DNA of 26,510 nucleotides from Acidobacteriota bacterium. GTDB lineage: Bacteria; Acidobacteriota; Vicinamibacteria; Marinacidobacterales; SMYC01. The stretch is from positions 1 through 26,510 of the forward strand of contig JAJCXL010000502.1 of assembly GCA_029263435.1 (NCBI GenBank), read 5' to 3'. Of the stretch, positions 1 through 18,913 are shown in pieces. Under the pieces are notes generated by a model. The model searched no databases and had not been told where the DNA came from. It saw only the letters and a program-made list of their open reading frames with translations. How positions within the stretch are numbered: the first letter of the stretch is position 1; every line of letters begins with the position of its first letter. A program made the position numbers and the translations under genes.

Positions 1-662
1 GAGCAATCCGCGGAGTAGTTCGTGGTCTCCGAGATAACCTTCGTGGTGCTTCCGTCCTCACCTTGGGCCGCGAGATCGGTCAACGTCGCGAGGAGGAGGT
101 CGGACCCGATGCCCTGAGCGTTGAGCGTGATGCCGCGTCCATCGAGAAGGCTCTGGAACGTCACACCGTTGGCCGCTTCGTAGCCCGCGCGATCGAGGGC
201 GCCGTTATGCGATACCGTCTGGTTGCCGTCGGTGAATAGATAGATGGTGCGCTTGTCCGCCGGACCGCTCGTCGGAAAACTTGGCCACGAGACGGGAAGG
301 TTATCCATCCAATCGGCCGTCTGACGTATGGCTCCGAAGATGTCCGTCAGATTCCCGACCGCGGACTGATTGGAGGACTGGTTCTCAACGGCTTTCACGA
401 CGTCTTTCATCACGTTGACCGTGAAGTCCTGGATCGACGCGTTGAACATTTGTTGGCCCACGAGCCCACCAAATCCGCTCGCGAAACGCCAAATCGAGAC
501 CGCCCATTCGTCGCTCGAGCTACGGACGTGATTCTTGATCTCTTCCAGGATCCATTGAGCGGACTCCGAGGCTTCCACGACTTTGTCGTGAGCGCAGTCG
601 TTGGCCGCCGGATGGTACATCGAGCCCGATGTGTCGATAACGATAGCTATCTGCTTGCGCAT
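1..662 (-). CDS. von Willebrand factor type A (vWA) domain protein, N-terminal part (runs off the left edge)
   Basis: Not in the ORF track. Manual translation from ATG 662 is open to the window edge: MRKQIAIVIDTSGSMYH...NLTDIFGAI...IYLFTDGNQT. It has the MIDAS DxSxS, T and D elements. Purine-rich GCAGGA lies just upstream. Confidence 0.85.
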   Translation of the reverse strand, partial: MRKQIAIVIDTSGSMYHPAANDCAHDKVVEASESAQWILEEIKNHVRSSSDEWAVSIWRFASGFGGLVGQQMFNASIQDFTVNVMKDVVKAVENQSSNQSAVGNLTDIFGAIRQTADWMDNLPVSWPSFPTSGPADKRTIYLFTDGNQTVSHNGALDRAGYEAANGVTFQSLLDGRGITLNAQGIGSDLLLATLTDLAAQGEDGSTTKVISETTNYSADC

Positions 663-3229: not shown

Positions 3230-4003
3230 CTAGTCTGGTGAGACGAGTGCGTCCGCGAGAGCGTTAATCGCGACCAAAGACGGGGCACCGGTATCGACGG
3301 GAGCCATGCGTTTTTGATCTCCTCTTCTCAGCTCATCGTCGTAGGGGATCTCAGCCAAGATATCGAGTCCGTGTGCGCCCGCGTAGTCGGCAATTGCTTT
3401 CCGGTCGACCGCATCTCTTACCTTGTTCGCCACCACCACGACCCGCTCGACGCCCAACTCCTTGCCGAGCGCCACGGTGCGCCGCGCGGTCTCGAGCGCG
3501 CGATAGTACGGCTCCATCATCACGACCAGCGTATCCACGTGTCGCGACGTGCCACGACTCAAATGCTCGAGCCCTGCTTCCATGTCCACGACCGCGACGA
3601 CACCCTTTTCTTGAAGCATTCCACCCACGAGTTGCCGCACCGCGGCATGAGCGCGGCACATTCATCCGGAGCCGGCGTGGTCGACTTGTCCCATCAAGAG
3701 TAAACGGACCCGGTCGGGGCTCTCGGTCCCGTACTGCACGACGATGTCGCGAGCAGGGATACGCAAGTCGAGCTTTCTCTTCCCCTCGGCATCCGTCGTC
3801 TCTTCCAGGATCGTGCGCGGCATGGGTCTCAGTGCGGCCTGCGCATCTTCAGACAAGCCTAGAGTGGAGGCGAGGTTCGGATTGGAGTCCGCGTCGATCG
3901 CCCACACTTCATGGCCTCGCTGTGCGAAGAGACGGGCGAGGGTGCCCGCCATCGTCGTTTTTCCCGTGCCGCCCTTTCCGGCGATCGCTACCTTCGGATG
4001 CAT
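3230..4003 (-). CDS. cooC: CooC/AcsF-like nickel-insertion ATPase with in-frame UGA (probable Sec114), 257 aa
   Basis: Deviant Walker A GKGGTGKTT, then IDADSNPNL, GSG-[UGA]-MCRAH and VDMEAGLEHLSRG. The two track ORFs (3662-4072 and 3230-3661) are in the same frame and separated only by TGA 3664-3662. SD AAGGAG precedes ATG 4003. The joined length is typical of CooC. Confidence 0.88.
3623..3652 (-). promoter_or_regulatory. Candidate bacterial SECIS hairpin
   Basis: Starts 10 nt after the UGA. Lower stem GCUCA/UGGGU, upper stem UGCCGC/GCGGCA, apical loop GGU beginning 21 nt after the UGA. Confidence 0.6.
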
Positions 4004-4019
4004 GAAACTCCTTTGACAC

Positions 4020-4406
4020 TCAGTGTGCGAGGTGCTGACAATCGGCCGGATCGCCGGTCTCACTGCAATCACAATTCGGGTCGCCGCACTCCCCGTGTCC
4101 CGGCTTGGTCATGTCCGAGAACTCGTCCGCGAACCGTCGACCACCTTCCTTATTGCCGATGATGGTGAGGCGAAATCGCGGCTCGGCGGGAGCGCCATGG
4201 ACAGGCTGGGCGAGCACGCGCTCGACGAAGCCGAGCTCTACCATGCGCTCGAGCACCGGCCGGATGTCTTGCTCTTTCATCGTCAGCCACCGAACGAGCT
4301 CTGGGGAGGCGACGTCGTCGGCGAGGCCTTCGCCTCGAAGCCAGAAAAGGATCTGCAGGATCTCGTCGACGGCCGCGACGGGTTGGGCTTCGGGGTCAGA
4401 GGACAT
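4020..4406 (-). CDS. Hydrogenase-associated winged-helix protein with C-terminal Cys/His-rich tail, 128 aa
   Basis: SD GAGGAG before ATG 4406. wHTH-like core (EILQILFWLRGEGL...LERMVELGFV...RFRLT) and tail GHGECGDPNCDCSETGDPADCQHLAH. Confidence 0.75.
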   Translation of the reverse strand: MSSDPEAQPVAAVDEILQILFWLRGEGLADDVASPELVRWLTMKEQDIRPVLERMVELGFVERVLAQPVHGAPAEPRFRLTIIGNKEGGRRFADEFSDMTKPGHGECGDPNCDCSETGDPADCQHLAH

Positions 4407-4917
4407 GAGTCTCCTCTGTCGTCGCCAGGTAATCGACAACGAGGCGCTCGGCCTCACGAACGGCGGGCTCGAGACTCGCCTCCATCGCGGCCGTGAGCTG
4501 GGTCGTTACGTCGTCGCAAGATCCGACCTGCGCGCCTACGATCCAAACAACCTCGGGCAAGACGTCCATCGTCGCCGCGAGGTGAAACACCCCTTCAGGC
4601 TTGGCTTCGTGAAGGTCTACCGGGGTCGTGTGATCGCTTCGGTAGTGGGCGAGATCGGGCTCGAGGACAAAGAGTCGTCCGGCTTCGCAACCTCGCTCCA
4701 ATGCGTCGAGCACGAGCAACGCGTCGTATCCGTCCATGAGCTCGTGCACGAGGCCGATGCCTGCGATCCCACTTTCCCAAAAATGTACTCGTGGCTCCGA
4801 GCCGAGCCGACCCGCTCGCAGGCGTTCGAGGGAGCGAATGCCGAAACCGTCGTCGCCCCGAAGCACGTTTCCGACACCGGCCACGAGAATGCGCGGCGCC
4901 GGTGGGACTCTAGGCAT
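4396..4917 (-). CDS. Hydrogenase maturation endopeptidase (HybD/HupD/HycI family), 173 aa
   Basis: GVGNVLRGDDGFG, LLVLDAL and VDLHE give the full acidic/Asp/His metal-ligand set. ATG 4917 overlaps the upstream stop. Confidence 0.92.
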   Translation of the reverse strand: MPRVPPAPRILVAGVGNVLRGDDGFGIRSLERLRAGRLGSEPRVHFWESGIAGIGLVHELMDGYDALLVLDALERGCEAGRLFVLEPDLAHYRSDHTTPVDLHEAKPEGVFHLAATMDVLPEVVWIVGAQVGSCDDVTTQLTAAMEASLEPAVREAERLVVDYLATTEETHVL

Positions 4918-5407
4918 TGCTCTGGGCGAGCTTGCCGGTGGCTTCTCCAGGTTCTTCGGGCTGAGCGAGCCCAAAGAATTCATAGGTGGCGCGGGGCGCC
5001 AGAACGAGAGCCGCGAGGCTGACCGACAGGATCACGTGCTGCAGAGACATATGAGCCGTGGCGAACAGGCCGCCCAAGGGGTGAGTCATGATGGCGCGGG
5101 CGAAGGTGGGAACACATTCGAGACCGGTCACCAGCCATCCGGCCGCGAGAATGCCGGTGGGCAAGCTCAAGAGGAGAGGCAGGCGGTGGGCAAGCGCGGG
5201 CTTGAGCGCGAACACGACCCCGGCCAATGCGAGCACCGAAGAGCTGGGAAATAGAATTCCGTACAGCCCGACCATGGTCTGGGGCTGGGCGATCATCTTA
5301 TAGGGGATGTAGCCCAACAGACTGAGCCCCGCAAGGAACATCAGCATCCGGTAAATCTTCCACCGTCGACGTTTCTTGCCTTCGCAGCTCTCACCGTCGC
5401 ATTTCAT
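4910..5407 (-). CDS. Uncharacterised integral membrane protein (about 4 TM), 165 aa
   Basis: Four hydrophobic segments after a basic KKRRRWK stretch. ATGA overlap with the upstream gene and 8-nt overlap with the downstream gene. Confidence 0.75.
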   Translation of the reverse strand: MKCDGESCEGKKRRRWKIYRMLMFLAGLSLLGYIPYKMIAQPQTMVGLYGILFPSSSVLALAGVVFALKPALAHRLPLLLSLPTGILAAGWLVTGLECVPTFARAIMTHPLGGLFATAHMSLQHVILSVSLAALVLAPRATYEFFGLAQPEEPGEATGKLAQSNA

Positions 5408-6087
5408 GGCGTGACTCCTCCTGGGGTGCTCGTAACGTTCGTGGCAACTCTGATTCTATCCCCATCGAGGCTCACTTGAAAAGCCTCGAGCCGGGTGTCG
5501 GGGGCTCCGGCTTTGATCCCGGTTTGGACGTCATAGCGGCATCCGTGCCAGGGACAATGAATCTCACCGTCGACGAGCGTACCCAAGTGAAGCGGCAGAA
5601 TACTTCCGGGGCACGTGTTGCGATAAGCGTAGACCGCATCGTCGGTGGCGGCGATGAGCACCGGCGATTGCTCGATCTGAATCGCTCGAAGCACTCCGGG
5701 CGGGAGATCCTCTCGCGCGAAGGCGACGTTCCACGCGGGCTTTCGCTCCACGCCGCCAATCGCATCGAGAGGTATGAATCCGGACGAGTAAGGTGAGGCG
5801 ACCGTGGAGGTACTCTCGACCGGGGTGAGCGGCTCGCTCGGTATGAGGTCGTAGAGGATGAAAAGCATTCGGACGGCGGGGTCCGAGACCATCCGCTCGA
5901 TAAGTCCTTTGCCGCCCAGCTCGCTGAGCACTTCGAACAGGCCCCACACGCAGCTTCGGTGGAGGTGGTCGATATTCTCCACGAGCTCCAACGCCTTGCT
6001 CTTGGCGCTGGATTCCGGCAGGGCCTCGAGCTCTGTGACGAGCTCCGCGACCCGCCGCGCATGATGTTCGAGGTCGTGGGAAGCCAT
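5404..6087 (-). CDS. Hydrogenase-associated Fe-S protein: helical N-terminal domain plus C-terminal Rieske-like domain
   Basis: C-terminus AYRNTCPGSILPLHLG...IHCPWHGCRYDVQTG is Rieske ferredoxin-like. The N-terminus resembles the leader domain of NifU-like hydrogenase accessory proteins. Confidence 0.78.
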   Translation of the reverse strand: MASHDLEHHARRVAELVTELEALPESSAKSKALELVENIDHLHRSCVWGLFEVLSELGGKGLIERMVSDPAVRMLFILYDLIPSEPLTPVESTSTVASPYSSGFIPLDAIGGVERKPAWNVAFAREDLPPGVLRAIQIEQSPVLIAATDDAVYAYRNTCPGSILPLHLGTLVDGEIHCPWHGCRYDVQTGIKAGAPDTRLEAFQVSLDGDRIRVATNVTSTPGGVTP

Positions 6088-6090
6088 CGC

Positions 6091-6603
6091 TCAGTCCATC
6101 TGCTCGGGGAGGACGGTTGCTTGCGCGAGCTCGCGCACGACGCGACAGACCTCAGGGAGCCGCGCCGCGACCTCGTCACTGGCGGTGAGACCCGCGCCGG
6201 TCGTGAGCGCACGGATCTCGACGATGATGACTTCGGGCGGAAGCGCGTCGAACTGCTGAGCGATGATGGGAAAGCTCTCGAGGTCGATGACACCCGTCAC
6301 CGCCTCTGCGACCCGGGTTTGGATCTCTTCAGGAGAGGGAAGCTGGCCGTGCCACGGATACCATCGGTAGCCCTGGTCCGACGACACGTTCTCCGATGCG
6401 CCCAGAAGAACCAACCGCTCGTAAGGAGGCTTTTTCTCTGACAGACGATGAACCGTCGCGATCGGGCCGCCATAGCTCAAGTCGCAAACGTCGACCTCTT
6501 TGGGCAGAGATTCTTGCTGCAGCCTCTCCGCGACCATCAATCCCGCCGACAAGTCGCTTAAGTTGAAATAGCCGACGCTTCCCACGAGCGTTCGCTTCGT
6601 CAC
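6091..6603 (-). CDS. Hydrogenase maturation protease-like protein with degenerate metal ligands
   Basis: LVGSVGYFNLSDLSAG...RLVLLGAS...PEVIIVEI follows the HybD/HycI fold pattern. GTG start with SD AGAAAGG. Immediately follows the large subunit gene. Confidence 0.72.
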   Translation of the reverse strand: MTKRTLVGSVGYFNLSDLSAGLMVAERLQQESLPKEVDVCDLSYGGPIATVHRLSEKKPPYERLVLLGASENVSSDQGYRWYPWHGQLPSPEEIQTRVAEAVTGVIDLESFPIIAQQFDALPPEVIIVEIRALTTGAGLTASDEVAARLPEVCRVVRELAQATVLPEQMD

Positions 6604-6609
6604 GCCTTT

Positions 6610-8496
6610 CTACTCATCGACACCGCACGCGCAGGTATTGATCTCTCGCGACACGACGTGATCGCCGGCGTGAACGTGGGTCGTGCACGGCATGCACGGG
6701 TCGAAGCTTCTCAGCGTTCTCAATACGTCCACCGCTTTGAAGCTCTCCGGCGAGTCGAACTCCTCCAAGATTGGAGTCGCCATGACGGCTTCTTCATAAG
6801 GGCCGAGGTGACCCCAAACGTCTCGGGGCGAGGCGTTGATCGTGGACGGAGTGATGATCTGATAGTTCGCGACGAGGCCGCCATCGAGCTCGAGATGATG
6901 ACTGAGCCACCCACGCCCGGCTCCGGAGAAACCGACGCCCACGCGAGTGCCTCGGGTGGGAATCTCGAACGGCGTAGAGACATCGGTCTTGCCCTGCTTG
7001 AGGTAGTCGAGGCCTTTTAGCCAGTTGTTCATCGCGACGGCGTTGTTGAACAAAATTGCGTAAGCTCTGGCGCGGTTTCGCTCGAACGTGTTCCACACTT
7101 TCGGAATCTTCCACTCCATCTCGACTTCGGGTTTCTGACTCTTGGGGACTCGAAACTTGAGACTCTTTCCCGTCGCTTCCACGAAATCGTTCGTCGGCAT
7201 TTTTTGCGCGGCGGCCGTCGTCCACAGTCGGGTATAAGCTCCGGCTTCGAAAGATTGGCGATCCCATCGGGGCGCACAGGACCAGGAATATTTCTCCTTC
7301 CAGTTCTGTCCGGTGGGCTTGGGTTTGGTCTCCTTGTTCCACGGGTGGTACGGGCTGAGCGGGTTGCCGCTCGGGTCACTTGCAAAACGCTTGCCCTCCC
7401 ACTCGTCGTAGAAGGAGTGCTCGACGAACTCCTCGATCCCGGCATTGATCGCGGTGAGCTTGGTCGTGACGAGCTCCCCGTTCATGATGACGCCCGGGGT
7501 GGACCACCTCTTTTCACCCCATGAGTCGCAGTTCTCGTAGGAGGCGTCATAGGCTTCCGGATCGTCCCAGAGCCCGAGATCCGCCATGTGGATCGGGCGC
7601 TCACCGCACTTCTTATAGAGGGGATTCAGCTCGTAGAAAAACTCCGTGATGTCGTCCCAGATCGCGGCCACTTTCTTCGAGTAGTCGAAAAGCTGCTGGA
7701 GCCTGGTGTAGTACTCGTTGAACGCTTGGAGGCTCACGAGCGTGCTGACCCCACCGGGGACGATCGTCTCCGGATGTGGATACTTGCCGCCGAGCACGAC
7801 ATAGGCCTCGCGGGCGAGGCGGGTCATGGCGAGAGCTTCGACGTATAACTTTCCGGATAGCGGGTTCAGGTCGGTCATGATCTCTGCCATCGTGCGGTAG
7901 CCGTGAAGATCTCGCCCTCTCGCGTCGTAGGTCTTGGCCTTTGCCCAGGCCGACGGGTTGGTTTGCTCTACGACGAGCTGGGAGTAGTCGGGCCCGGCGA
8001 GGAGAAACAAATGGAGCGGATGATCGTAGTTGAACTCCATCGCGAGCATGAGGTTGCGAATGACGATGCCCAGTGGAGGGGGCACCACTCCGAGGGCCAT
8101 CTCGATGGCTTTGACGGCGGCGATCGAATGGACGCCGCCACACACGCCGCAAGCGCGGCTAGTAATGAAGACGGCGTCGCGCGGGTCGCGTCCGTTCATG
8201 ATGATCTCGTAACCGCGAAACAAGGTCGCCATCGAGTTCGCATTGAGCATCTTGCGCTCTTTGAGATCCGCGACCGCGTGGAACGCCAGAGCACCCGCGA
8301 CCCGGGTGACCGGATCGAAGTCCACATCCTTGACGAAACCATTTCGCGCGAGAAGCTCTTTGATCGCTTTGTCCGACAGAGGCTTCGGCCCCACGATATC
8401 GGGCGTGCCGGCCAAGGCGAAGGCTCTCGTCGCTTCTTCCCGAAGGGTCATGCGGCCTTGGGCATCGATGTCGATCGGCAGATTTTTGAAGCACAT
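6610..8496 (-). CDS. hylL: [NiFe]-hydrogenase large subunit (group 1, probably 1l), 628 aa
   Basis: L1 TSRACGVCGGVH and L2 SFDPCMPCTTH, followed by a 21-aa cleavable extension. The group call rests on gene layout and motifs, not on a tree. Confidence 0.95.
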   Translation of the reverse strand: MCFKNLPIDIDAQGRMTLREEATRAFALAGTPDIVGPKPLSDKAIKELLARNGFVKDVDFDPVTRVAGALAFHAVADLKERKMLNANSMATLFRGYEIIMNGRDPRDAVFITSRACGVCGGVHSIAAVKAIEMALGVVPPPLGIVIRNLMLAMEFNYDHPLHLFLLAGPDYSQLVVEQTNPSAWAKAKTYDARGRDLHGYRTMAEIMTDLNPLSGKLYVEALAMTRLAREAYVVLGGKYPHPETIVPGGVSTLVSLQAFNEYYTRLQQLFDYSKKVAAIWDDITEFFYELNPLYKKCGERPIHMADLGLWDDPEAYDASYENCDSWGEKRWSTPGVIMNGELVTTKLTAINAGIEEFVEHSFYDEWEGKRFASDPSGNPLSPYHPWNKETKPKPTGQNWKEKYSWSCAPRWDRQSFEAGAYTRLWTTAAAQKMPTNDFVEATGKSLKFRVPKSQKPEVEMEWKIPKVWNTFERNRARAYAILFNNAVAMNNWLKGLDYLKQGKTDVSTPFEIPTRGTRVGVGFSGAGRGWLSHHLELDGGLVANYQIITPSTINASPRDVWGHLGPYEEAVMATPILEEFDSPESFKAVDVLRTLRSFDPCMPCTTHVHAGDHVVSREINTCACGVDE

Positions 8497-8497
8497 G

Positions 8498-8782
8498 TCA
8501 GTTCGATCCTTTTTGGCCGAGTGCGTCAGCCGTGCGTTCCAGGTTTTTGTCGACGTGCTCGAACTCGCCGCTCAAGGCTGAAAGAGCTCCGGCGATGGTT
8601 GTGATGCGCTCTTTCAGCGGCTTCGCGTTGTCGCGCACGCGGATGAGGCCGGCGGCGAGCTTATCCAGGTGCTGGCTCGCCCGGAGAAGATAAAACGCGA
8701 CGCCGCTGAGATAAGTGGCGAGCACCACGACGATGGCTGCGGTAAGAACGAGCGTCCAGAGAGTGAGGGTTTCAGTCGTCAT
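8498..8782 (-). CDS. Small single-pass membrane protein TM5 (94 aa)
   Basis: MTTETLTLWTLVLTAAIVVVLATYLSGVAFYLL followed by an amphipathic helix. Starts 2 nt after the TM4 stop and stops 1 nt before hylL. Confidence 0.8.
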   Translation of the reverse strand: MTTETLTLWTLVLTAAIVVVLATYLSGVAFYLLRASQHLDKLAAGLIRVRDNAKPLKERITTIAGALSALSGEFEHVDKNLERTADALGQKGSN

Positions 8783-8784
8783 GT

Positions 8785-9078
8785 CTACGAGTCCTTCGCG
8801 GACGTCACCGCGGTCGCGATATCGGCTGTGCGCGCCTTCACACTTTGCGTGGTGGTCAGTAGCTTCGTCGCCGTCGTTATCGTCGCCGATAGAGCCGCCA
8901 CCGCTTCGGTGTTCGACGCGATGCCGGCTCCGGCGGTGAGCGCTTCTTCGAGGTTGCGCTCGATGTTGCGAGCGGCGGTCAACGTACGATGTAGCAAGAC
9001 GATCGCGAGCGGTACTACGACGAAGCTCACCACGCCCAACGTGACGGCCCAAATCCAAAGTGCGGCTTCCGGGATCAT
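8785..9078 (-). CDS. Small single-pass membrane protein TM4 (97 aa)
   Basis: N-terminal TM helix plus Ala/Thr-rich amphipathic helix. ATGA overlap with TM3. Confidence 0.8.
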   Translation of the reverse strand: MIPEAALWIWAVTLGVVSFVVVPLAIVLLHRTLTAARNIERNLEEALTAGAGIASNTEAVAALSATITTATKLLTTTQSVKARTADIATAVTSAKDS

Positions 9079-9365
9079 TTTTCACCTCCGGTGAGGTTGC
9101 CGACGACGGTCTCGAGCTCTTGATCGACTGCGGCGAGCCCGTCGCCCAGCGACGCGAGCCCTGCATTGAGCTTCGTCACTTGCGGTGCGAGGTGCCCGGT
9201 CTCGGTCTCGATGGCGCGCAGCCCGAAGCGGATCTTCGCGAGAAAGCTCGTCGGGGATCCTCCGATCGCGTCGAGCTCTCGATGGATGAGGATGAGGTAG
9301 ACGGCGACCACCAACAGCAGGGCCACGGCTGCCAAACAGCTCAGAAGAGTCAGCAGCGTGATCAT
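9075..9365 (-). CDS. Small single-pass membrane protein TM3 (96 aa)
   Basis: MITLLTLLSCLAAVALLLVVAVYLILI followed by LAKIRFGLRAIETET. ATGA overlap with TM2. Confidence 0.8.
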   Translation of the reverse strand: MITLLTLLSCLAAVALLLVVAVYLILIHRELDAIGGSPTSFLAKIRFGLRAIETETGHLAPQVTKLNAGLASLGDGLAAVDQELETVVGNLTGGEK

Positions 9366-9658
9366 GACGATTGGGTAGCCTTTCTGATGCGCTGAGCGGC
9401 GGAAGCGATGCTCCCCGCCGAGTCTAGCAGCGCCCCGGCCAAGTGATTCGTCCGTTTGAGGTGAGCGATATTGACGGTGTTTCCGGCGATGCGTTTTCCG
9501 CCCGTCCAAATGTCGGACACGCTGGTGAGAATCCGGCGCGCGGTCATCAGAATCATTTGCAGGAGTGCTATCACGACGAGCAGCACGACCGCACCGAGCA
9601 CGAGCGCGACGATCCAACGTTGTTCGGAGACTGGGGAAAGTGTCCATAAAGTGAACAT
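9362..9658 (-). CDS. Small single-pass membrane protein TM2 (98 aa)
   Basis: WIVALVLGAVVLLVVIALLQMIL TM helix plus amphipathic tail. SD GAGGAAGG. TTG 9661 is an alternative start. Confidence 0.8.
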   Translation of the reverse strand: MFTLWTLSPVSEQRWIVALVLGAVVLLVVIALLQMILMTARRILTSVSDIWTGGKRIAGNTVNIAHLKRTNHLAGALLDSAGSIASAAQRIRKATQSS

Positions 9659-9673
9659 CAAAGGTTTCCTTCC

Positions 9674-9949
9674 TCAACCGAGCCGGTCGGCGATCGTGTG
9701 GACTCGCTGATCGACGGATTGCACCGTACGGGCGATACCCTCGGTGATTCGGTTGGCATCGCCAAGGGACCAGATGGGCTGGGTCGCGGACTCGATCTCA
9801 GCCGCCACGCTGAGCGCGGTCGCGGCGAGGCTCGCGATCTTTCGCGCCACCATCAGAATCGTGATGAGGAGCACGGCCACCGCGAGGACGACCACGGCGC
9901 CGAGGATGAACCCCAGCCGCCACTGTGCAAGAACGTCGGTCTCGGTCAT
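9674..9949 (-). CDS. Small single-pass membrane protein TM1 (91 aa)
   Basis: MTETDVLAQWRLGFILGAVVVLAVAVLLITILMV plus amphipathic tail. ATGA overlap with the small-subunit stop. Confidence 0.8.
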   Translation of the reverse strand: MTETDVLAQWRLGFILGAVVVLAVAVLLITILMVARKIASLAATALSVAAEIESATQPIWSLGDANRITEGIARTVQSVDQRVHTIADRLG

Positions 9950-11193
9950 CGGTTGTCTTCTCCGGTCTTGTCGACATGCGAGCCGGGCTTGGAAGTGCCG
10001 AGGAACTGATACTTCTCGTAGACTTCGTGAACGAGTCGTTTCGCGAAACTCGGCTTGTCCACGTTCCCCCAACCACTGGGGACGTGATCGTCCCACCTCG
10101 TCGTTCGGTTCTGAAATTGCTGGGTGAGACGCCGGAGAGTGCGGATGAACGTGCCGGTCACTCGAGACAAGTTGGTCGAGACGAGCGAACCAGGCGGCAT
10201 CTTGTAAAACGGTGCGAATCGGTCTGGGAATCCCGGCATGGTGCAGCCGATACAGATCCCTCCCGTGTTCATGCACCCACCCATGCCGTTGATGGCGCCG
10301 CGCTGGGTGATGTTGCATTGAACGACCGGACCCCAACAGCCCACCTCGACGAGACACTCCTTGTCCCCGTAGCTCTCGGCAAAGAGTCCTTCTTCGTAGA
10401 AGCCGGCGCGGCCGCAGCGCTGGTGTACGGTCTCTTGGAAAAGCCACGCGGGGCGTCCGAGCTCGTCGAACTCAGGCAGCGGGCCCAATCCTTGTAAAAA
10501 CAAGAGGACCGCGGCAACGGTCTCGGTAAAGTTGTCGCCGACGGGGGAGCAGCCCGGGATGTTCACCACCGGAAGCCCCAGATCGCTTCGATAGTTCTGG
10601 CCGAGAAAATCCATGACGCCCATAGCTCCGGTTGGATTGCCGGCCGCCGCTGGGACGCCTCCCCATGTCGCGCAGGTGCCGATCGCTATCGTCGCCGCCG
10701 CGTTAGGTGCGAGGCGCGAAAGCCAGCTCGCGGTCGGGATGGGTTTCGATTGTCCGTTGGGAAGCTTCTCCGCGCCGAGCGCCGACCAGTAGCCTCCGTG
10801 TTTCTCCGCCAATCTCTCATCGGCGACGGAGCCCTCGAAGATGACCACATAAGGAGCGCCAAGCTCGCCTCTTTCGGCCATCCGATAGTTCTCGACGAAG
10901 GCATCTCCCGCCTCCACCGACAGCACTGGATGATGAAGCACCACCCGTGGCACCCCTGGAATCGTTCCCGCCATCAACATTTCCGCCGAGGGACTGGTGG
11001 CTCCGACGACACAGATCGAGCAGCCGTCGCAGCTCATCCCGGCCAGCCAGAATGCATGGACGACGTCGTAGGGCCCGAGGTTTAGCTTCTCCGACTTTGC
11101 CTCTTGCAGCCGGGCTTCTCGAAGGGCAGCAGGCGCCGCCCAGCTGTCGGGATCCATGTTCGACGCAACGTTTCCGTTCGCGATTTCTGCCAT
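9946..11193 (-). CDS. hylS: [NiFe]-hydrogenase small subunit (no Tat signal), 415 aa
   Basis: Proximal SCDGC / GTCA / PGCSP, distal HQRC...ECLVEVGC, medial CN...GGCMNTGGICIGC. SD GAGGAG. Confidence 0.94.
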   Translation of the reverse strand: MAEIANGNVASNMDPDSWAAPAALREARLQEAKSEKLNLGPYDVVHAFWLAGMSCDGCSICVVGATSPSAEMLMAGTIPGVPRVVLHHPVLSVEAGDAFVENYRMAERGELGAPYVVIFEGSVADERLAEKHGGYWSALGAEKLPNGQSKPIPTASWLSRLAPNAAATIAIGTCATWGGVPAAAGNPTGAMGVMDFLGQNYRSDLGLPVVNIPGCSPVGDNFTETVAAVLLFLQGLGPLPEFDELGRPAWLFQETVHQRCGRAGFYEEGLFAESYGDKECLVEVGCWGPVVQCNITQRGAINGMGGCMNTGGICIGCTMPGFPDRFAPFYKMPPGSLVSTNLSRVTGTFIRTLRRLTQQFQNRTTRWDDHVPSGWGNVDKPSFAKRLVHEVYEKYQFLGTSKPGSHVDKTGEDNR

Positions 11194-11218: not shown

Positions 11219-12289
11219 TCAGCAAATCCTGGGGAGCTGTTCCCCCGAGATCATCGTGACGACGCGCTCTCCGCCGACCGCCGAGCGCATCAAGACCATT
11301 GTTGGGTGGTCCGCGACGGCCTCTCCGACGATCGCGGCGTCTGCCCCGAGCGGGTGCTGTCGCATGGCGTCGAGTACGTCTTCCGCGCTTTCGGCGGGCA
11401 CGGCCGCGACGAGCTTTCCTTCATTTGCGACGTAGAGCGGATCCAGACCGAGGATCTCGCAAGCCGCGCGCACTTCGCGCTTCAGCGGGATGGCACTCTC
11501 TTCGAGCACCAAGCCGACTTGAGAGCTTCGTGCCAGCTCATGAAGCACGCTCGACAGCCCGCCTCGGGTCAGATCCCTCATAACGCGAACGGGAGCACCG
11601 GTCGCGAGAACCTTCTCCGTCAGTCCGGACAACGGCGCGCTATCGCTTTCGATGGTGGTCTCGAACTCGAGGCCTTCTCTCACCGATAGAATGGCGATGC
11701 CGTGGTCGCCGAGGGTCCCGGAGACGATGAGCTTGTCTCCGGAACGAACGCTCGCAATGGAGAGGGTCCGGTCCTTGGCCACCAGGCCGACGCCCGAAGT
11801 GTTGATGAATATCTGGTCCCCTTTGCCGCGCTCGACGACTTTGGTGTCACCGGTTACGAGACGCACGTCCGCGTCCCGACACGCTTCGCCCATCGAGCGC
11901 AGCACCCGCTCGAGTGTCTCGATCGGGAGTCCTTCTTCGAGGATGAGCCCGGCGCTCAAGGCGAGAGGGCGCGCCCCGCCCACAGCGAGATCGTTGACCG
12001 TTCCATGCACCGCGAGCTTGCCAATATCTCCGCCCGGAAAAAACAGCGGCTGAACCACGTAAGAATCCGTCGTGAACGCGAGTCGGCTGTCACTTTGCGG
12101 CAGGCTGAGCGTCGCTTGATCTTCCAAAGCCGCCAGGATGTCATTGTCGAAAGTCGGCACGATGATGCGATGGATCAAGTCTTCCATGAGCTGTCCGCCA
12201 GCTCCGTGGCCCATCGTGATCTCGGGATAACGCGACTTGGGAATAGGACAGCTACCCGCGAGCTCCGGACCAGTGAGCGGTTGGCTCAC
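11219..12289 (-). CDS. hypE: Hydrogenase maturation carbamoyl dehydratase HypE, 356 aa
   Basis: [31 protein letters not shown] and C-terminal PRIC. GTG start overlaps the hypD stop (GTGA). Confidence 0.97.
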
Positions 12290-13401
12290 CGTGCGACCTC
12301 CGTCGTCGCGGCTTCGAGGTGCCGTCCATAGGCGTAATAGGCGGCACAGGCGCCTTCGGATGAGACCATCGTCGCGCCGAGTGGCGTTTGCGGCGTGCAC
12401 GCCGTACTGAACGCCGGGCAGTCGAGGGGTTTTTTCACCCCTTGTAGAATCTCGCCGCTGATACAAATCGGAGATTCTCGGGTCTCGACTGTCTCGACGT
12501 CGAAGCGGCTGGCGGCATCGAACGCGCGGTAGCTCTCCGAGAGCCGGTAGCCGCTCGCCGGGATTGTCCCTATTCCCCGCCACTTCCGGTCGCAGACGTC
12601 GAAGACTTCGGCGAGAAGATCGCGCGCGTGCGGATTGCCCTCCCGGCTCACGACTCGCCGGTACGGCGTTCGAACCTTGGCTTCACCGGCTTCGAGCTGC
12701 TCGACCGTACGTAGGATGCCCTCGAGCATGTCGACCGGCTCGAAGCCGGTGATCTCGATAGGCACGCCGTAGCGCTCCGCAAGGGGCTCGTACTCTTCGG
12801 TACCCATCACGGTACAGACGTGGCCCGGCCCGAGAAAACCGTCCACCCGATTCGCGGGCGACTGAAGCAGAAACTCGATGGCGGGGGGCACGAGCACGTG
12901 AGAGGCGAGGATGCTGAAGTTGTCGAGACCGCGGCGACGGGCTTGCTTCACCGCCATCGCGTTGGCCGGGGCGGTGGTCTCGAATCCCACCGCGAAGAAC
13001 ACGATGTCGCGGTAAGGGTGTTTGGCGGCGAGCTCGACCGCGTCTAACGGTGAGTAGACGACGCGAACGTCGGCGCCTCGTGCTTTGAGCTCGAGGAGGT
13101 CACCCTGAGAGCCCGGCACGCGCAGCATGTCACCGAACGAGGTAAAGATGACCTCGGGACGGGACGCGATCGAATGCGCGCGGTCGATGACCTCGAGGGA
13201 CGTCACGCATACCGGGCATCCCGGCCCATGAACCAGCTCGAGCGCCTTCGGGAGCAACCGATCGATCCCGAACTTCACGATCGTGTGTGTCTGTCCGCCG
13301 CAGATCTCCATGAGGGTCCAAGGTCGCGTCATCGCTCGTTCGATGCCCTGGACCAGCTTGCGAGCAGCGACGGGGTCGCGGTATTCGTCCAGATATCTCA
13401 T
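12286..13401 (-). CDS. hypD: Hydrogenase maturation protein HypD
   Basis: [26 protein letters not shown] and the C-terminal Cys cluster with [10 protein letters not shown]. Confidence 0.98.
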
Positions 13402-13655
13402 GAGCCGGGATCCTCGAGCTTCAACTCCGCGATCTCTCCCATGCTGTCGAGCAGCTCGAACACCTCGCGCGCGTACTGTTCGTCGATGCGTGACAGCGCA
13501 AATCCGACGTGCACGAGCACATACTCGCCCGGCTCGACCTCGGGAACGTGGTCGAGGCAGATCTTCTTGACCACTCCATCGAAGCTCACTTTTCCCATGA
13601 GGATGTCGTGCTCACGAAAGGTATCGATGACTTTTCCGGGAACTCCGAGACACAT
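13398..13655 (-). CDS. hypC: Hydrogenase chaperone HypC
   Basis: N-terminal MCLGVPG and YVLVHVGFA. Confidence 0.97.
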
Positions 13656-13658
13656 GAC

Positions 13659-16004
13659 CTAAACGCCTCCTTCAAGAGCTGCGGAGAGCTTCGCGGCAGC
13701 CACCGCGATCTGTCCGAGCGCGAGACCTCCGTCATTCGGAGGGACGTGATGGTGCGTGAGCACTCGAAAGCGTTTCGCTTCCAACGCCCGAAGGGCGAGT
13801 CGTGTCAGCAAAACGTTTTGAAACACACCGCCCGTGAGCGCGACACGATGAATGCTTCGCTCTTCGCGGATCCCGTCGCACATCTCGACGATGCATCGTG
13901 CGAGCGACGCGTGGAAACGTCTCGCTACGCGTTGGGGTGTGGCGCCCCCCGCGAGCTCTTCCACGATGGCCGTGGTAAGCGGTCGCGTATCCACGACCCA
14001 GCCGGACGCTCCGGGCGCGATCTCGAAAGGATAAGGCGCTTCGTCTGCTTCACCTTCGCAAAGCCACTCGAGGGCCATCGCCGCTTGCCCTTCGTAGGCG
14101 ACGACGTGCCGCAGCCCCACGAGAGACGCCACGGCGTCAAACAGCCGCCCGGCGCTTCCGCTCGGCGGAGATTGCACGCCGCGCTCGATCATCGCCCATA
14201 CGATCGCGGCTCGCTCCTTGGGGATGTCCGTGGCGTCACCCGCGTCGAGGCCGGCGTCGTGGAGATACGATAGAGCCATCCGCCAGGGCTCGCGGGCGGC
14301 GGCGTCGCCTCCAGGGAGAGGGACCGGCCGTAGCGACCCGACTCGGGTGAAGGACCGACAGTCGCCGACGAGAAACTCGCCTCCCCAAATCGTTCCATCG
14401 GTGCCCAGGCCCGCTCCGTCGAACGTGACGCCGATCGCCGGCTCGAGCGCCTCGGGCCCGTGGGAGATGGCATTGTCGGCGAGACAGCTGGCGAAATGCG
14501 CGTGGTGATGCTGGACGCCTATTTGGGCGACACCCCGTTCGTTTGCCCGGGTTGTCGCGTAGCGCGTCGAAAAATAGTCTGGATGAAGATCGTGGACCAG
14601 TGCCTCCGGCTCGAAATCGAAAAGGTCTTCATAGAGTGCGATATCCCGCTCGAAAGCCTGGCACGCTCGGAGGTCACTCAGATCGCCGATGTGATGACTC
14701 AGAAAGGCGTTGGGTCCAATGCCGAGAGCGAATGTGTTTTTCAAATGGCCGCCGACCGCGAGTAGCTTTTTCGAGGCCTCGACCGAAAGGCGCAGCGGCT
14801 CGGGAGCGAAACCTCGAGATCGGCGGATAGGCGTCGAGGTCGCCCCCACGACGCGCACTACGGAGTCGTCGCACCGTACCCGAATGGGCCGGTCATGCGT
14901 GAGGACGACGTCAGCGATAGCGCCGAGCCGGTCCACCGCGTCGTCGTCCTCGTAGGCGATGGGCTCGTCGGAGAGATTCCCGCTCGTCATGACGAGAGGT
15001 CGTCCGTCAAGAGCGCGCGAGAGCACGAGATGAAGGGGAGTGTACGGGAGGAGGACGCCAATCGTCGGATTGGAAGGCGCGACGGCTTCCACGACGATGG
15101 ACGGATGCCTTTTTTCGAGCAAGACGATGGGGCGGTGTCTCGAACGAAGCAGCTTCGCCTCGTGACTCGACACGTGCGCCCATCGACGCGCGGCGTCGAC
15201 ATCGGCCGCCATGACCGCGAAGGGTTTCTCGTAGCGCCTCTTCCGCTGCCGTAATCGGGTCACGGCCGCGGACGACGTCGCGTCGCACACGAGGTGAAAG
15301 CCTCCGAGACCTTTCACGGCCGCGATGGCACCGTGGCGAAGGCGCGTGACGAGATCGGTCATCGCATCGCCGGTTGGGCCATCTTCGTTCGCAGTGCCAT
15401 GCAACCGGAGCGTCGGACCACAAGCCGGACAAGCGTTCGGTTGGGCGTGGAATCGACGATGGGTCGGGTCTTTGTACTCTCTCCGGCAATCGCCGCACAT
15501 CGAGAAGCCCGACATCGACGTCCGTTCACGATCGTAGGGGGCACCTTCGATGATCGTCAGGCGGGGTCCGCACTGCGTGCAGTTCAAAAACGGATAGAGG
15601 TAGCGTCGGTCTCGCGGATCGAACAGCTCGCGCTCGCAATCCGAGCAGGTCCCGAGATCCGCGAGAAATCGAGGGCTAGGGCCGGGGCGGGTCGCTTCGG
15701 TCGCACTCGCTCGGATCTCGAACCGCTCGGCACCATCGACCGGCATCGGTTGCCAATGCAACGACTCGATGCGAGAGGTCTCGGGGGCGCTTTCGGGAAG
15801 GGCTTCGATAAACGCTTCCAGGCTTTGGGGCTCCCCCTCGATCTCGATGCGGACCCCGGTTACGTCGTTGACGACGAAGCCGCGGAGCGCGTGGCGCGCG
15901 GCGAGAGAGTGAACGTAAGGTCGAAATCCGACGCCTTGAACGAGCCCCCGCACGGAGATCGCCCGGCGTTCGGCATGTCGATCGTCTACGACGGGCGCAG
16001 TCAT
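13659..16004 (-). CDS. hypF: Carbamoyltransferase HypF
   Basis: Acylphosphatase domain (VQGVGFRP), two CxxC-x18-CxxC zinc fingers, KGLGGFHL, HDLHPDY, QHHHAH and LTGGVFQN. Confidence 0.98.
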   Translation of the reverse strand: MTAPVVDDRHAERRAISVRGLVQGVGFRPYVHSLAARHALRGFVVNDVTGVRIEIEGEPQSLEAFIEALPESAPETSRIESLHWQPMPVDGAERFEIRASATEATRPGPSPRFLADLGTCSDCERELFDPRDRRYLYPFLNCTQCGPRLTIIEGAPYDRERTSMSGFSMCGDCRREYKDPTHRRFHAQPNACPACGPTLRLHGTANEDGPTGDAMTDLVTRLRHGAIAAVKGLGGFHLVCDATSSAAVTRLRQRKRRYEKPFAVMAADVDAARRWAHVSSHEAKLLRSRHRPIVLLEKRHPSIVVEAVAPSNPTIGVLLPYTPLHLVLSRALDGRPLVMTSGNLSDEPIAYEDDDAVDRLGAIADVVLTHDRPIRVRCDDSVVRVVGATSTPIRRSRGFAPEPLRLSVEASKKLLAVGGHLKNTFALGIGPNAFLSHHIGDLSDLRACQAFERDIALYEDLFDFEPEALVHDLHPDYFSTRYATTRANERGVAQIGVQHHHAHFASCLADNAISHGPEALEPAIGVTFDGAGLGTDGTIWGGEFLVGDCRSFTRVGSLRPVPLPGGDAAAREPWRMALSYLHDAGLDAGDATDIPKERAAIVWAMIERGVQSPPSGSAGRLFDAVASLVGLRHVVAYEGQAAMALEWLCEGEADEAPYPFEIAPGASGWVVDTRPLTTAIVEELAGGATPQRVARRFHASLARCIVEMCDGIREERSIHRVALTGGVFQNVLLTRLALRALEAKRFRVLTHHHVPPNDGGLALGQIAVAAAKLSAALEGGV

Positions 16005-16489
16005 TCGCGCTCATGCCTCAAAGCGAATCTGACCACTGATTGGTGACCGGACGGTGGCAGGGCCGGCTGCGCGAATCGCTTCTGACCCTCGCCGATGCCT
16101 TCCGGCGTGAGCGCGTAGCGGGCCGGTATCCGAGTCGTTTGAGCGGCGACTAGGCCGCCGTCGGTCAACGCTTTGAGGTGGCGCTCAACCACTCTCGGAG
16201 AAACGTCGAGGAGCGATGCGAGCTCGGCCGAAGTAACCGTCAATCCCAGGCCCTGGCTCAACAGCCAGTGCATCAAGTGATGGGTCTCCGTCTGAAGGTC
16301 CGGCGGCTTCGCGGGTGAATGGTCCCGCTTCTGGGTCCACGTCACGATGGCGTCGCGGTGGAACCGCCAATCGGTTCCCATCTTGAACGCTGGAATCCGG
16401 CCTTTACGCGCGAGGCGGTAGACCGTGTTGGGATGTACCTTCAAAAAGTTCGCAACCTCGGCGACGGTCAAGACCTCTTGCGGGGACAT
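16001..16489 (-). CDS. Putative transcriptional regulator: excisionase-like (HTH_17/MerR-like) DNA-binding domain plus C-terminal winged helix, 162 aa
   Basis: LTVAEVANFLKVHPNTVYRLARKGRIPAFKMGTDWRF is a typical Xis-like HTH. SD GGAGG before ATG 16489. ATGA overlap with hypF. Confidence 0.85.
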   Translation of the reverse strand: MSPQEVLTVAEVANFLKVHPNTVYRLARKGRIPAFKMGTDWRFHRDAIVTWTQKRDHSPAKPPDLQTETHHLMHWLLSQGLGLTVTSAELASLLDVSPRVVERHLKALTDGGLVAAQTTRIPARYALTPEGIGEGQKRFAQPALPPSGHQSVVRFALRHERE

Positions 16490-16527
16490 TTCCAGCCTCC
16501 AAACCAATTACGTGGTGAACGTGTGTC

Positions 16528-16587: not shown

Positions 16588-18831
16588 TCAGGGCATGGGC
16601 TGGAACAGCTCATTGCCGAGATCGGCGTCGAAACGCACGTCCGTATAGGTGATCTCGGTTTGCTGATGGCTCAAGACGCCGTCGTCGTCGTAGCCCCACG
16701 CGAGCCGTCGGGTGGGCATGCGAATGCCGTCGATGGTCCGATGGTCCGCGTAAGTGCTGAACGATTGCTCGATCGGTTGCGGGCCGTATTTCAGGTGGTT
16801 CGCGACCAGCCTGGCATCCTCCGGAGAGAAGAAATAGGTCCACGTGTGGTACCCACCTGAGCTCCCCGCACCTTTCTCATAGTCGACGACCAGCTCATCC
16901 GCGCTCGATCCATCCGGAAGCTCGGCTCGGCCGACCCGCGTGAAGATCGCGCCAGGATCCGTGAGCTTGAACGGCATCGAGAACACGTAGTGGGAGCCAA
17001 ACGTCGAGTTCCACGCTTGATCTTTATCGGCTTGGGCGGTCGCGAGAGCGCCGTCCGCATACTTCCACGCCTGCTCGCCGTTGTTGATGAGCACGACCGT
17101 CTTGCCGGCCTCTTGTCGCTCCATCCGAACTTTGATCGTGGGGCTCAGAAGATATTGATGTTTCTCGGAGACGGTTCGCTCTAGGTTTCCGGCGGCGTCG
17201 AAATACTTGGTCGTCTTGATGTAGGAGACGCTCTTCTTCGCCGCCCAAGCTTCGAAACTGTCGGATGCGTAGGCGATGGCGCGGCGAACGAGCGCTCCGG
17301 CTTCGTTTTCCGGGAGCCTGGCCATGGGGCTGGAAGACGCTGTCACGGTGTCACCGTTTTTCGCGAGCCACTCTCTCACGTTTTCGAGAACGAGCGCGTG
17401 ACCGTAGCTTCCAGGCGGAAGCGCCGCGAGCTCGACAGCGATCTCTTTCGCGCGATCAGTGCTGCCGGCCCCGTCATGCGCGCGGGCGAGGAGCCAGCGA
17501 TTGAAAGGGTCGCCGAGCTGCGATTGTTGCAAGTGCTCGATGGCGTCTTCGAACGCCTCTTGCTCGACGAGGATATAGCCCATCAGATAGTGATAAGCGG
17601 GTAAGAAGCGTTCTGCCTGGTCACCGCTCTCGTCGATCCTCTCCTTCATCTGGGCGGCCATGGAGAGTGCCTCGTCGAATCGACCTTGCCGGGCCTTGAT
17701 CCGCGCCTGTGCGTGTAAGTAGCGTCCGTCCCACAATTGACGCATGAATGGCGACAGGTCCGGTTCTCGGCTGATGGCGAGACTGCGGTCGTAGGTCGCG
17801 GCGGCCACGTCGTAGCGGCCTTGCTCGAGATAGAGTCTGGCGAGCGCGTTGTAGAAAATCGGCGCGTTGTCGAGACGGGTCTCGTATGTGTAGTCGGCCG
17901 TCGCTTCGAACACTTGCGCGGCTTGCTCGGGATCGCCCGCGAGCAAATGCGTCATGCCGTAATCGAAACAAACGTCCTCGGCTTTGATCCAATCGAGATA
18001 GAGCTCCTTATAAGCCCCGTCGCCGAGCGCCTGCGTCGCGTCACACAAGTCCCGGTATGCTTCGATCGCGCTCGAATGGTTCTCGGCGATCCGAAAGCTC
18101 GCGGCCCGTCCATCGAGGGCGGGGACGAAATCACTATCTGCCCCGAGTGCTTCGTCATAACCGCGAATGGCGTCATCGATCTGGCCGCGGTTTCTGAGAA
18201 TGTCGGCCTGGACAGTCAGCGCCCGAGCACTCAGAGGCTCGAGCTCGACGGCACGGTGTATCGCTTCGAGCGCGCCGTCGGTGTCTCCGGCGGCCAGACG
18301 GGTCTCGGCAAGCCGAACGTGCGCCGGGGCGAATGTGTCATCGATGGCGATCGCCCGAGACATCGCCTGCTCTGCGGCGTCGAAGTCTCGCGATTTGTAG
18401 TGGAACCAGCCAAGCTCGAACTGCGCTTGAGCACTCTCAGGCAACGCACCGATCACTTGCGACAGGGTGTCGCGCGCGGCCGGGTAGTCCTGGCGCCCCC
18501 AGGCAGTGAGCGCCTCGAGCCAGAGCTTCTCGACCTCACTCGCTCCTTCGATCGTCGCCGCGGCGCGCTGCCAGTGTCCTTCGACATCGCCGGTATAGTT
18601 CATGCTCAACGCCTGGTATCCGTGCGCGAGCGCGAAATCCGGGTCGGCCGTGAGCGCGTCGCCGAAGGCCGCCATCGCCGGCGTCATCTGCTGTCGGTTG
18701 AAATGCGAGATTCCCGTCTGAAAGTGAGCCCGAGCCTCGTCCGACGAAGTCGTGAGCGGCATCGGTGACGGCCCGCGGTCGCAACCGCTAAGACAGACTG
18801 CCAGTAGAACCAAAGACAAACCAGCACGCAT
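16588..18831 (-). CDS. TPR-repeat lipoprotein with a C-terminal beta-rich domain (possibly DUF6503/LolA-like), 747 aa
   Basis: Lipobox LSGC (Cys17) from ATG 18831 with SD GGGAGA. Many TPR-like helical repeats, then a distinct domain (SHYVFSMPFKLTDPG). The family name of that domain is from memory and unverified. Confidence 0.8.
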   Translation of the reverse strand: MRAGLSLVLLAVCLSGCDRGPSPMPLTTSSDEARAHFQTGISHFNRQQMTPAMAAFGDALTADPDFALAHGYQALSMNYTGDVEGHWQRAAATIEGASEVEKLWLEALTAWGRQDYPAARDTLSQVIGALPESAQAQFELGWFHYKSRDFDAAEQAMSRAIAIDDTFAPAHVRLAETRLAAGDTDGALEAIHRAVELEPLSARALTVQADILRNRGQIDDAIRGYDEALGADSDFVPALDGRAASFRIAENHSSAIEAYRDLCDATQALGDGAYKELYLDWIKAEDVCFDYGMTHLLAGDPEQAAQVFEATADYTYETRLDNAPIFYNALARLYLEQGRYDVAAATYDRSLAISREPDLSPFMRQLWDGRYLHAQARIKARQGRFDEALSMAAQMKERIDESGDQAERFLPAYHYLMGYILVEQEAFEDAIEHLQQSQLGDPFNRWLLARAHDGAGSTDRAKEIAVELAALPPGSYGHALVLENVREWLAKNGDTVTASSSPMARLPENEAGALVRRAIAYASDSFEAWAAKKSVSYIKTTKYFDAAGNLERTVSEKHQYLLSPTIKVRMERQEAGKTVVLINNGEQAWKYADGALATAQADKDQAWNSTFGSHYVFSMPFKLTDPGAIFTRVGRAELPDGSSADELVVDYEKGAGSSGGYHTWTYFFSPEDARLVANHLKYGPQPIEQSFSTYADHRTIDGIRMPTRRLAWGYDDDGVLSHQQTEITYTDVRFDADLGNELFQPMP

Positions 18832-18913
18832 CGAATTATTCTCCCGCGGAGATTTTATCAGCCTTCCCGCATGCATCCCATCATCGAAGTCGCTGTTACT
18901 CCGGCTCGCGGCG

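Follow-up and report, generated by a model that had tools for sequence, protein, structure and literature searches.

The window analysed in this work is a stretch of 26,510 nucleotides from a metagenome-assembled genome (MAG) of an Acidobacteriota bacterium; the MAG comprises 587 contigs, is 76% complete and has low coverage (word depth about 5). On its minus strand, the window carries a cluster of [NiFe]-hydrogenase genes, the last of which (3230–4003) encodes a P-loop ATPase of the CooC/MinD type. Read along that strand, the cluster begins with hypF (13659–16004), hypC (13398–13655), hypD (12286–13401) and hypE, all recognized with Pfam and spanning 11219–16004 overall. Next come the gene for the small subunit (9946–11193; PF14720 and PF01058), three ORFs without an assigned family, the gene for the large subunit (6610–8496; PF00374) and one more such ORF. 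These are followed by the genes for a Rieske [2Fe-2S] protein (5404–6087; PF00355, 1.5e-12), a further ORF, a hydrogenase maturation endopeptidase of the HycI/HupD family (4396–4983; PF01750, 3e-10), a small protein named p145 (4020–4406) and, finally, the ATPase. The large subunit belongs to group 1h, i.e., to the actinobacterial, high-affinity type; its best PDB match is 5aa5, HofG of the O2-insensitive group 1h hydrogenase of Ralstonia eutropha (E = 4.6e-148). All nickel ligands of this subunit are cysteines, found in the motifs RACGVCGGVH and DPCMPCTTH, which agrees with the all-Cys active site claimed in the initial annotation of this DNA.

Five ORFs of the cluster (4910–5407, 6091–6603, 8498–9166, 9075–9677 and 9674–10447, minus strand) have no Pfam family; indeed, even at E = 1 Pfam offered none for p145 or for the other small proteins of the cluster. 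The reality of ORF 9674–10447 is uncertain, since part of it coincides with the small-subunit ORF, read in a different frame. On the same strand, the cluster is bordered by regulatory genes. On the upstream side (16001–16507, 16588–18876 and 18914–20542), these encode an HTH_17/HTH_20 protein, whose gene immediately precedes hypF, a large TPR protein and a 7TM-PAS-GGDEF diguanylate cyclase, while an ECF-type sigma factor with DUF6596 is encoded downstream of the ATPase (784–2364).

The ATPase gene and its internal UGA codon

Translated from the minus strand, positions 3230–4003 give an ORF of 257 codons closed by a TAG stop, with the ATG at 4003 and an AAGGAG Shine–Dalgarno sequence just upstream of it. 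The plus-strand reading of the same interval was considered too, but yielded a meaningless translation, which places the gene on the minus strand. The product reads MHPKVAIAGKGGTGKTT...GQVDHAGSG-TGA-MCRAHAAVRQL...VSPD-stop, and the sole internal stop of the frame is a TGA at codon 114 (3664–3662, minus strand) in the context TCC GGA TGA ATG TGC CGC. Thus, the initial annotation, which had described one continuous frame interrupted by nothing but this TGA and had given the same letters around it, proved accurate. It had also predicted that such a gene would be misannotated as fragments or as a pseudogene. This is what we observed: the public protein collection contains only a 143-aa C-terminal piece (P0006) that begins right after the TGA, so the gene is currently annotated as a fragment.

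In a Pfam search, the ATPase matched CbiA (8e-18), a member of the CbiA/ParA/MinD group of P-loop proteins; no NCBIfam model reached its cut-off, and none covers the ATPase family. The best PDB match found with phmmer was CooC1 (3kje; E = 2.1e-34, query residues 4–223 against 2–219 of the chain), followed by MinD at 9e-8 and by Mrp-type proteins at 1e-4 or weaker. Residues 8–17 (AGKGGTGKTT) form a deviant Walker A motif with the signature lysine (xKGGxGK[ST]), and K10, G11, G12, G14, K15 and T16 are invariant in our alignment (A1). Altogether, 5073 homologues of the ATPase were found, with the nearest Cys forms being 62% identical to it and weaker similarity extending to the Mrp/NBP35-type and NifH-type ATPases.

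The CxC motif of CooC1 binds Ni or Zn at the dimer interface. When the ATPase is aligned with 3kje, its U114-M-C116 falls in register with C112-Y-C114 of CooC1, which bears out the earlier claim that the UGA (3662–3664) sits on the first Cys of the CooC motif. The same position is an invariant Cys column in the alignment with about 20 homologues; the columns of C116, H109 and H119 are likewise invariant there, and all Cys homologues have C-x-C. The window gene would accordingly encode a variant of this motif, UMC, with selenocysteine (Sec) in place of the first Cys.

The low coverage of the MAG might raise the suspicion of a sequencing or assembly error hiding a true TGC or TGT, a check against which had been proposed from the start, but this idea is effectively refuted, because independent Logan contigs from two more samples of the biofilm-metagenome study behind this MAG (X2 record 2 and X3 record 8) are identical at 3662–3664 while carrying strain variants elsewhere in the gene, and because the TGA recurs at this codon in the two nearest relatives and in at least 119 other genomes.

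Conservation of the UGA across phyla

A six-frame search of 60 relatives revealed the ATPase gene in two genomes, G004 and G011, that belong to a different genus within the same family; the latter is a MAG from Vicinamibacteria (Acidobacteriota). The genes of both are 68% identical to that of the window, have TGA at the corresponding codon (GAGUMCRAHAAVRQL) and also use TGA as their regular terminal stop, which indicates that TGA has not been reassigned genome-wide in this lineage. One TGA flagged within hypA of G011 was its stop codon and not a sign of a second Sec gene.

A wider view was obtained by scanning genome contigs, one genome per species, with the degenerate DNA pattern M-x4-H-[AG]-[AG]-x-G-TGA-x-C-x2-H-A. 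This gave at least 120 matches, and 119 of the 120 among the matches listed were true orthologues with TGA; the remaining one, from Pseudomonas (L035), was a chance match. Among the matches listed, the orthologues keep an open frame of at least 110 aa upstream of the TGA, where the contig reaches so far, and of about 143–160 aa downstream. Going by the titles of their records, they span at least 13 phyla, including Gemmatimonadota (37), Actinomycetota (32, mostly Thermoleophilia and Rubrobacteria), Acidobacteriota (20) and Chloroflexota (6), as well as Rokubacteria/Methylomirabilota, Planctomycetota, Myxococcota, Armatimonadota and others. Overall, the orthologue search suggested in the initial annotation brought up abundant genes that share the TGA column and are conserved before and after it.

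One might still suppose that the gene is a pseudogene, or that it yields two separate polypeptides, the first ending at the UGA and the second restarting at the AUG directly after it. The presence of this AUG in the window, together with the fact that gene-calling programs list a separate protein for the 143-aa C-terminal part, speaks for such a supposition. However, among the 122 Sec forms compared, U is followed by Leu in 69 cases, by Met in 46, by Ala in 6 and by Lys in one, so the AUG is not a conserved restart codon. Moreover, a split would break up the CxC site, and in at least 13 phyla the TGA stays at one position, the gene being under purifying selection on either side of it. For the 128 codons after the UGA, comparison with L026 and L025 gave 70% amino-acid identity, a dN of 0.18 and a dS of 1.6–1.9, that is, a dN/dS of about 0.1. 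The downstream half of the ATPase is under strong purifying selection, contrary to the relaxed selection that the initial annotation had named as an argument against Sec. Considering also that a covarying hairpin without a counterpart in Cys forms accompanies the TGA (see below), we find a pseudogene or a pair of polypeptides very improbable.

The distribution of the two forms was followed on a FastTree phylogeny of 271 ATPase sequences (106 Sec and 165 Cys forms). At least 28 changes between the Sec and Cys states are required on this tree, against about 84 when the labels are shuffled, and 13 of them are forced by well-supported branches. The window ATPase groups with two Vicinamibacteria Sec forms, next to the Cys forms L175, P0002 and P0003. 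Recurrent exchange between Sec and Cys is also seen in other selenoprotein families.

A SECIS-like hairpin and the selenocysteine machinery

An adjacent SECIS element on the 3' side of the UGA was expected from the initial annotation, and a SECIS-like stem-loop is indeed located at 3625–3656 (minus strand), as judged from the window fold and from comparison within the family. Its upper stem pairs 3647–3642 with 3638–3633 (UGCCGC/GCGGCA) around an apical loop GGU (3641–3639), and its lower stem pairs 3656–3652 with 3629–3625 (CCGCG/CGUGG). The hairpin starts about 15–16 nt downstream of the UGA and, counted from the U of UGA, presents G25 and U26 in the loop; the SECIS of E. coli fdhF presents G23 and U24. 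Folded alone, an 81-nt stretch of the window was not more stable than its shuffled versions (z = 0.07); the structure becomes visible only when sequences are compared.

As a control, we collected 62 Cys-form loci from metagenome contigs by the same pattern with TGY for TGA, 53 of which were unique; one hit of the CxC pattern, L153, turned out to be a chance match. The stem around the GU loop averaged 5.7 bp in 115 unique Sec forms among the matches listed and reached at least 5 bp in 94 of them, whereas at the same position the 53 unique Cys forms averaged 2.4 bp, and only two had 5 bp or more; the nominal p-values exaggerate this difference because the sequences are related. The local minimum free energy was −10.5 kcal/mol in Sec forms versus −7.3 kcal/mol in Cys forms, at a G+C content of 0.68 versus 0.71. 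A codon-matched comparison was particularly instructive. For the same peptide HATVRS, Sec genes use GCU ACN GUN CGU AGC, creating a perfect GCUAC/GUAGC stem, while Cys genes use GCC ACG GUG CGC/CGG AGC/UCG and create none. The peptide HASVRG follows the same pattern, being paired in Sec genes and unpaired in Cys genes.

In an alignment of 49 sequences, 83% of the cells of the six-pair helix were paired, against 31–44% with the 3' arm slid. The covariation score of this alignment was 0.212 versus 0.123 in shuffles, none of 500 shuffles reaching the former value, and two pairs of the helix covary (CG/UA/UG and AU/GC/UA/CG). RNAalifold gave no consensus structure for 114 unique sequences, since lineages differ by 1 nt in the register of the hairpin; explicit pair counts were used for the hairpin instead. 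Thus, a covarying hairpin with a GU loop accompanies the UGA and is without a counterpart in Cys-form genes for the same peptides.

The genome also possesses Sec machinery, with profile matches above the cut-offs for selA (551 bits), selB (364 bits) and selD (284 bits). That the Sec trait is in use is shown by two genes for the formate dehydrogenase alpha subunit (fdhA) with in-frame TGA at the classical U-H-G/A-P site: QARL-U-HGPTV (contig C285 of the source genome G000, 1–651, minus strand) and CNRT-U-HAPSV (C277, 16569–17051, plus strand), both lying at contig ends. In an ORF of 746 aa (C586; L020:1387–3627, minus strand), a pyridine nucleotide-disulfide oxidoreductase domain precedes SelD as an N-terminal fusion. 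The search for Sec genes proposed in the initial annotation was therefore successful for selA, selB and selD, but the gene for tRNA-Sec (selC) was found by neither ARAGORN nor the Rfam model RF01852 in this 76%-complete MAG, from which 28 tRNAs were recovered. All candidates returned by the two tools were look-alikes of tRNA-Ser, tRNA-Tyr and tRNA-Leu, the best RF01852 match (41 bits) being a tRNA-Ser. Yet both Sec-form relatives, G004 and G011, have tRNA-Sec (74 bits, with the cut-off at 47).

Taken together, it is highly probable that the UGA of the ATPase gene is a selenocysteine codon. SelB and tRNA-Sec would recode it, directed by the stem-loop with the GU apical loop about 15 nt downstream, and the resulting ATPase would carry U-M-C where its relatives carry C-x-C.

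Putative metal site, neighbouring protein and possible role of the ATPase

The most instructive comparison is that with CooC1 from Carboxydothermus hydrogenoformans (PDB 3kje, 3kjg, 3kjh and 3kji) and with the CooC/AcsF ATPases in general, which share with the window ATPase the MinD-type fold of the SIMIBI class, the deviant Walker A motif and a metal motif in register. The differences are as follows. CooC/AcsF proteins mature Ni,Fe-CO dehydrogenase (CODH) and acetyl-CoA synthase, whereas the window ATPase is encoded in the operon of a group 1h [NiFe]-hydrogenase. It has Sec for the first Cys of CooC1 and two extra invariant histidines flanking the motif, and it is paired with p145, a winged-helix protein with a Cys/His motif, instead of CooT or CooJ. 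Given that its neighbours are group 1h hydrogenase genes and that a search of the 76%-complete genome for cooS/Ni-CODH (TIGR01702) gave no match, the ATPase is CooC-like by fold and motif and not a CODH maturation factor.

HypB, either as a G3E GTPase or in the Mrp/MinD-type form of Thermococcus (PDB 3vx3), offers another parallel, being an NTPase encoded with hydrogenase genes and presumed to deliver metal to the large subunit. However, the window ATPase matches 3vx3 only at E = 1.8e-4 over the P-loop and does not match the HypB model TIGR00073. Neither hypA nor hypB is present in the window, and neither was found in the genome at its 76% completeness, while G004 and G011 carry a canonical hypA–hypB pair on another contig. 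Since these relatives keep the pair elsewhere, the ATPase appears to supplement HypAB and not to be a simple replacement of HypB.

The linkage to hydrogenase genes extends beyond the window. Among the matches listed, p145 is adjacent to the ATPase, upstream or downstream, at 74 of the 121 Sec loci, and genes for the protease, the Rieske protein and the large subunit were found within the fetched flank at 59, 46 and 41 of them, respectively. At Cys loci, p145 lies directly beside the ATPase in 30 of 62 cases. In addition, at 38 Sec loci among the matches listed, p170 (6091–6603) occurs alongside the large subunit, and in other phyla p257, p200 and p222 are found repeatedly between the genes of the two hydrogenase subunits. 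The Logan contig L212, which holds a Cys-form relative, has the same order of genes for Rieske protein, HycI, p145 homologue and CooC-like ATPase; the last two overlap there by 4 nt, which suggests translational coupling of the pair.

In the window, p145 comprises 128 aa from the ATG at 4406 and is built of a winged-helix domain, the motif H-x2-C-x4-C-x-C...C and a His-bearing tail. Throughout the family, the motif H-x2-C-x(3-4)-C-x-C...C is invariant (H104, C107, C112 and C114), and the tail is usually His-rich. The 291 homologues, where named by their source, are nearly all called "hypothetical protein", and four bear generic names of helix-turn-helix, ArsR or IclR regulators. An AlphaFold model of p145 (AF2; pLDDT 86) displays a winged helix resembling MarR/PadR-like proteins, including the zinc sensors AdcR and ZitR, at an E-value of only about 1e-3. 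For a native Cys-form pair from another contig (two copies of P0003 with its neighbour P0176), the predicted complex scored 0.68 and one control 0.55, which speaks neither for nor against binding. p145 could be either a nickel-carrying partner, functionally similar to CooJ or CooT, or a metal-sensing regulator.

Such evidence allows us to propose how the ATPase may work. By homology with CooC1, the motifs of two ATP-bound monomers would jointly form one metal site between the halves of the dimer, offering two selenolate and two thiolate ligands. The protein would then serve as an ATP-driven factor delivering or inserting a metal, probably nickel, for the O2-insensitive group 1h hydrogenase, possibly acting together with p145. 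From homology and gene neighbourhood, the role of a nickel chaperone for the hydrogenase is the most likely one. As for the preference for Sec, a lower pKa, faster ligand exchange and reversible oxidation in aerobes might account for it.

It is, nevertheless, conceivable, if rather unlikely, that this selenoprotein does something other than insert nickel: it might supply an Fe-S cluster or another metal to the small subunit or the Rieske protein, or participate in selenium or sulfur handling. The ATPases of the Mrp/MinD/NBP35 type, which have interface cysteines, provide an analogy for such a role, and there is the weaker similarity to Mrp/NBP35-type and NifH-type proteins. The cluster does encode a Rieske protein along with other proteins without an assigned family, and the relatives have retained canonical HypA and HypB for nickel. 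On the other hand, the closest solved relative by far is the Ni-binding CooC1 (2e-34, compared with 1e-4 or weaker for Mrp-type proteins), with which the CxC motif is in register; the motif is additionally flanked by the invariant His109 and His119, and the Cys/His-rich tail of p145 is typical of Ni/Zn carriers. On the whole, we have high confidence in the reading of the locus as encoding a CooC-type Sec ATPase, produced by hairpin-directed recoding and most likely delivering metal to the group 1h hydrogenase.

To our knowledge, the bacterial selenoproteins described so far are nearly all redox enzymes; here, by contrast, Sec is predicted at the site where a putative NTPase chaperone would handle its metal. 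Consulting the selenoprotein catalogues, as advised in the initial annotation, gave a clear answer: the May 2026 review lists 119 prokaryotic families, and no CooC/MinD/CbiA-type ATPase is among them (PMC13188914, Table 1). The same table does include a CobW-related selenoprotein (NF041053, UxxC), the SO_0444 Cu/Zn efflux transporter (UxC) and a cation-transporting ATPase (UxxC). In these proteins of metal trafficking, as predicted for ours, Sec takes the place of a Cys that ligates metal, and they were likewise predicted from a UGA/Cys pair and a SECIS; however, they are of other folds and families, the CobW-related protein and a few metal transporters coming closest in concept. The deep-Sep paper makes no mention of a Sec-containing CooC-type ATPase, and our full-text search of the literature found no report of a Sec-containing CooC, although its coverage leaves out most subscription journals, so this absence is not proof. 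The [NiFeSe]-hydrogenases also tie selenium to the nickel chemistry of hydrogenases. In that case, the catalytic Ni is ligated by a Sec of the large subunit, in enzymes from anaerobes, while here the large subunit is all-Cys, Sec resides in an accessory ATPase, and the associated enzymes are of the aerobic-type group 1h. Overall, the family adds a Sec variant to an already known kind of ATPase, and the window holds an independent member of it from Vicinamibacteria. What the present analysis adds is the codon-matched SECIS control, at least 13 switches between Sec and Cys and a conserved neighbour protein with a metal motif, p145.

We might conclude that this ATPase family, almost certainly containing Sec, is widespread, routinely misannotated and encoded beside hydrogenases for living on atmospheric hydrogen. 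More than 100 genomes annotate its gene as two fragments or as a pseudogene, and a family model with a Sec position would repair them. The occurrence of Sec and Cys forms within single lineages, in turn, provides natural experiments on what selenium contributes to a metal-transfer site. The carriers are largely aerobic lineages from soil, desert and biofilm, not usually regarded as users of selenium. It is tempting to go further and suppose, quite tentatively, that the high-affinity, O2-insensitive group 1h hydrogenases with which soil bacteria of at least 13 phyla consume atmospheric H2 need selenium for their maturation, a requirement so far overlooked and imposed through a dedicated metal-delivery module of the Sec ATPase and p145 that has been hidden as broken genes. 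If the ATPase does mature group 1h hydrogenases, then Gemmatimonadota, Acidobacteriota, Actinomycetota, Chloroflexota and other phyla would depend on selenium supply for oxidizing atmospheric H2.
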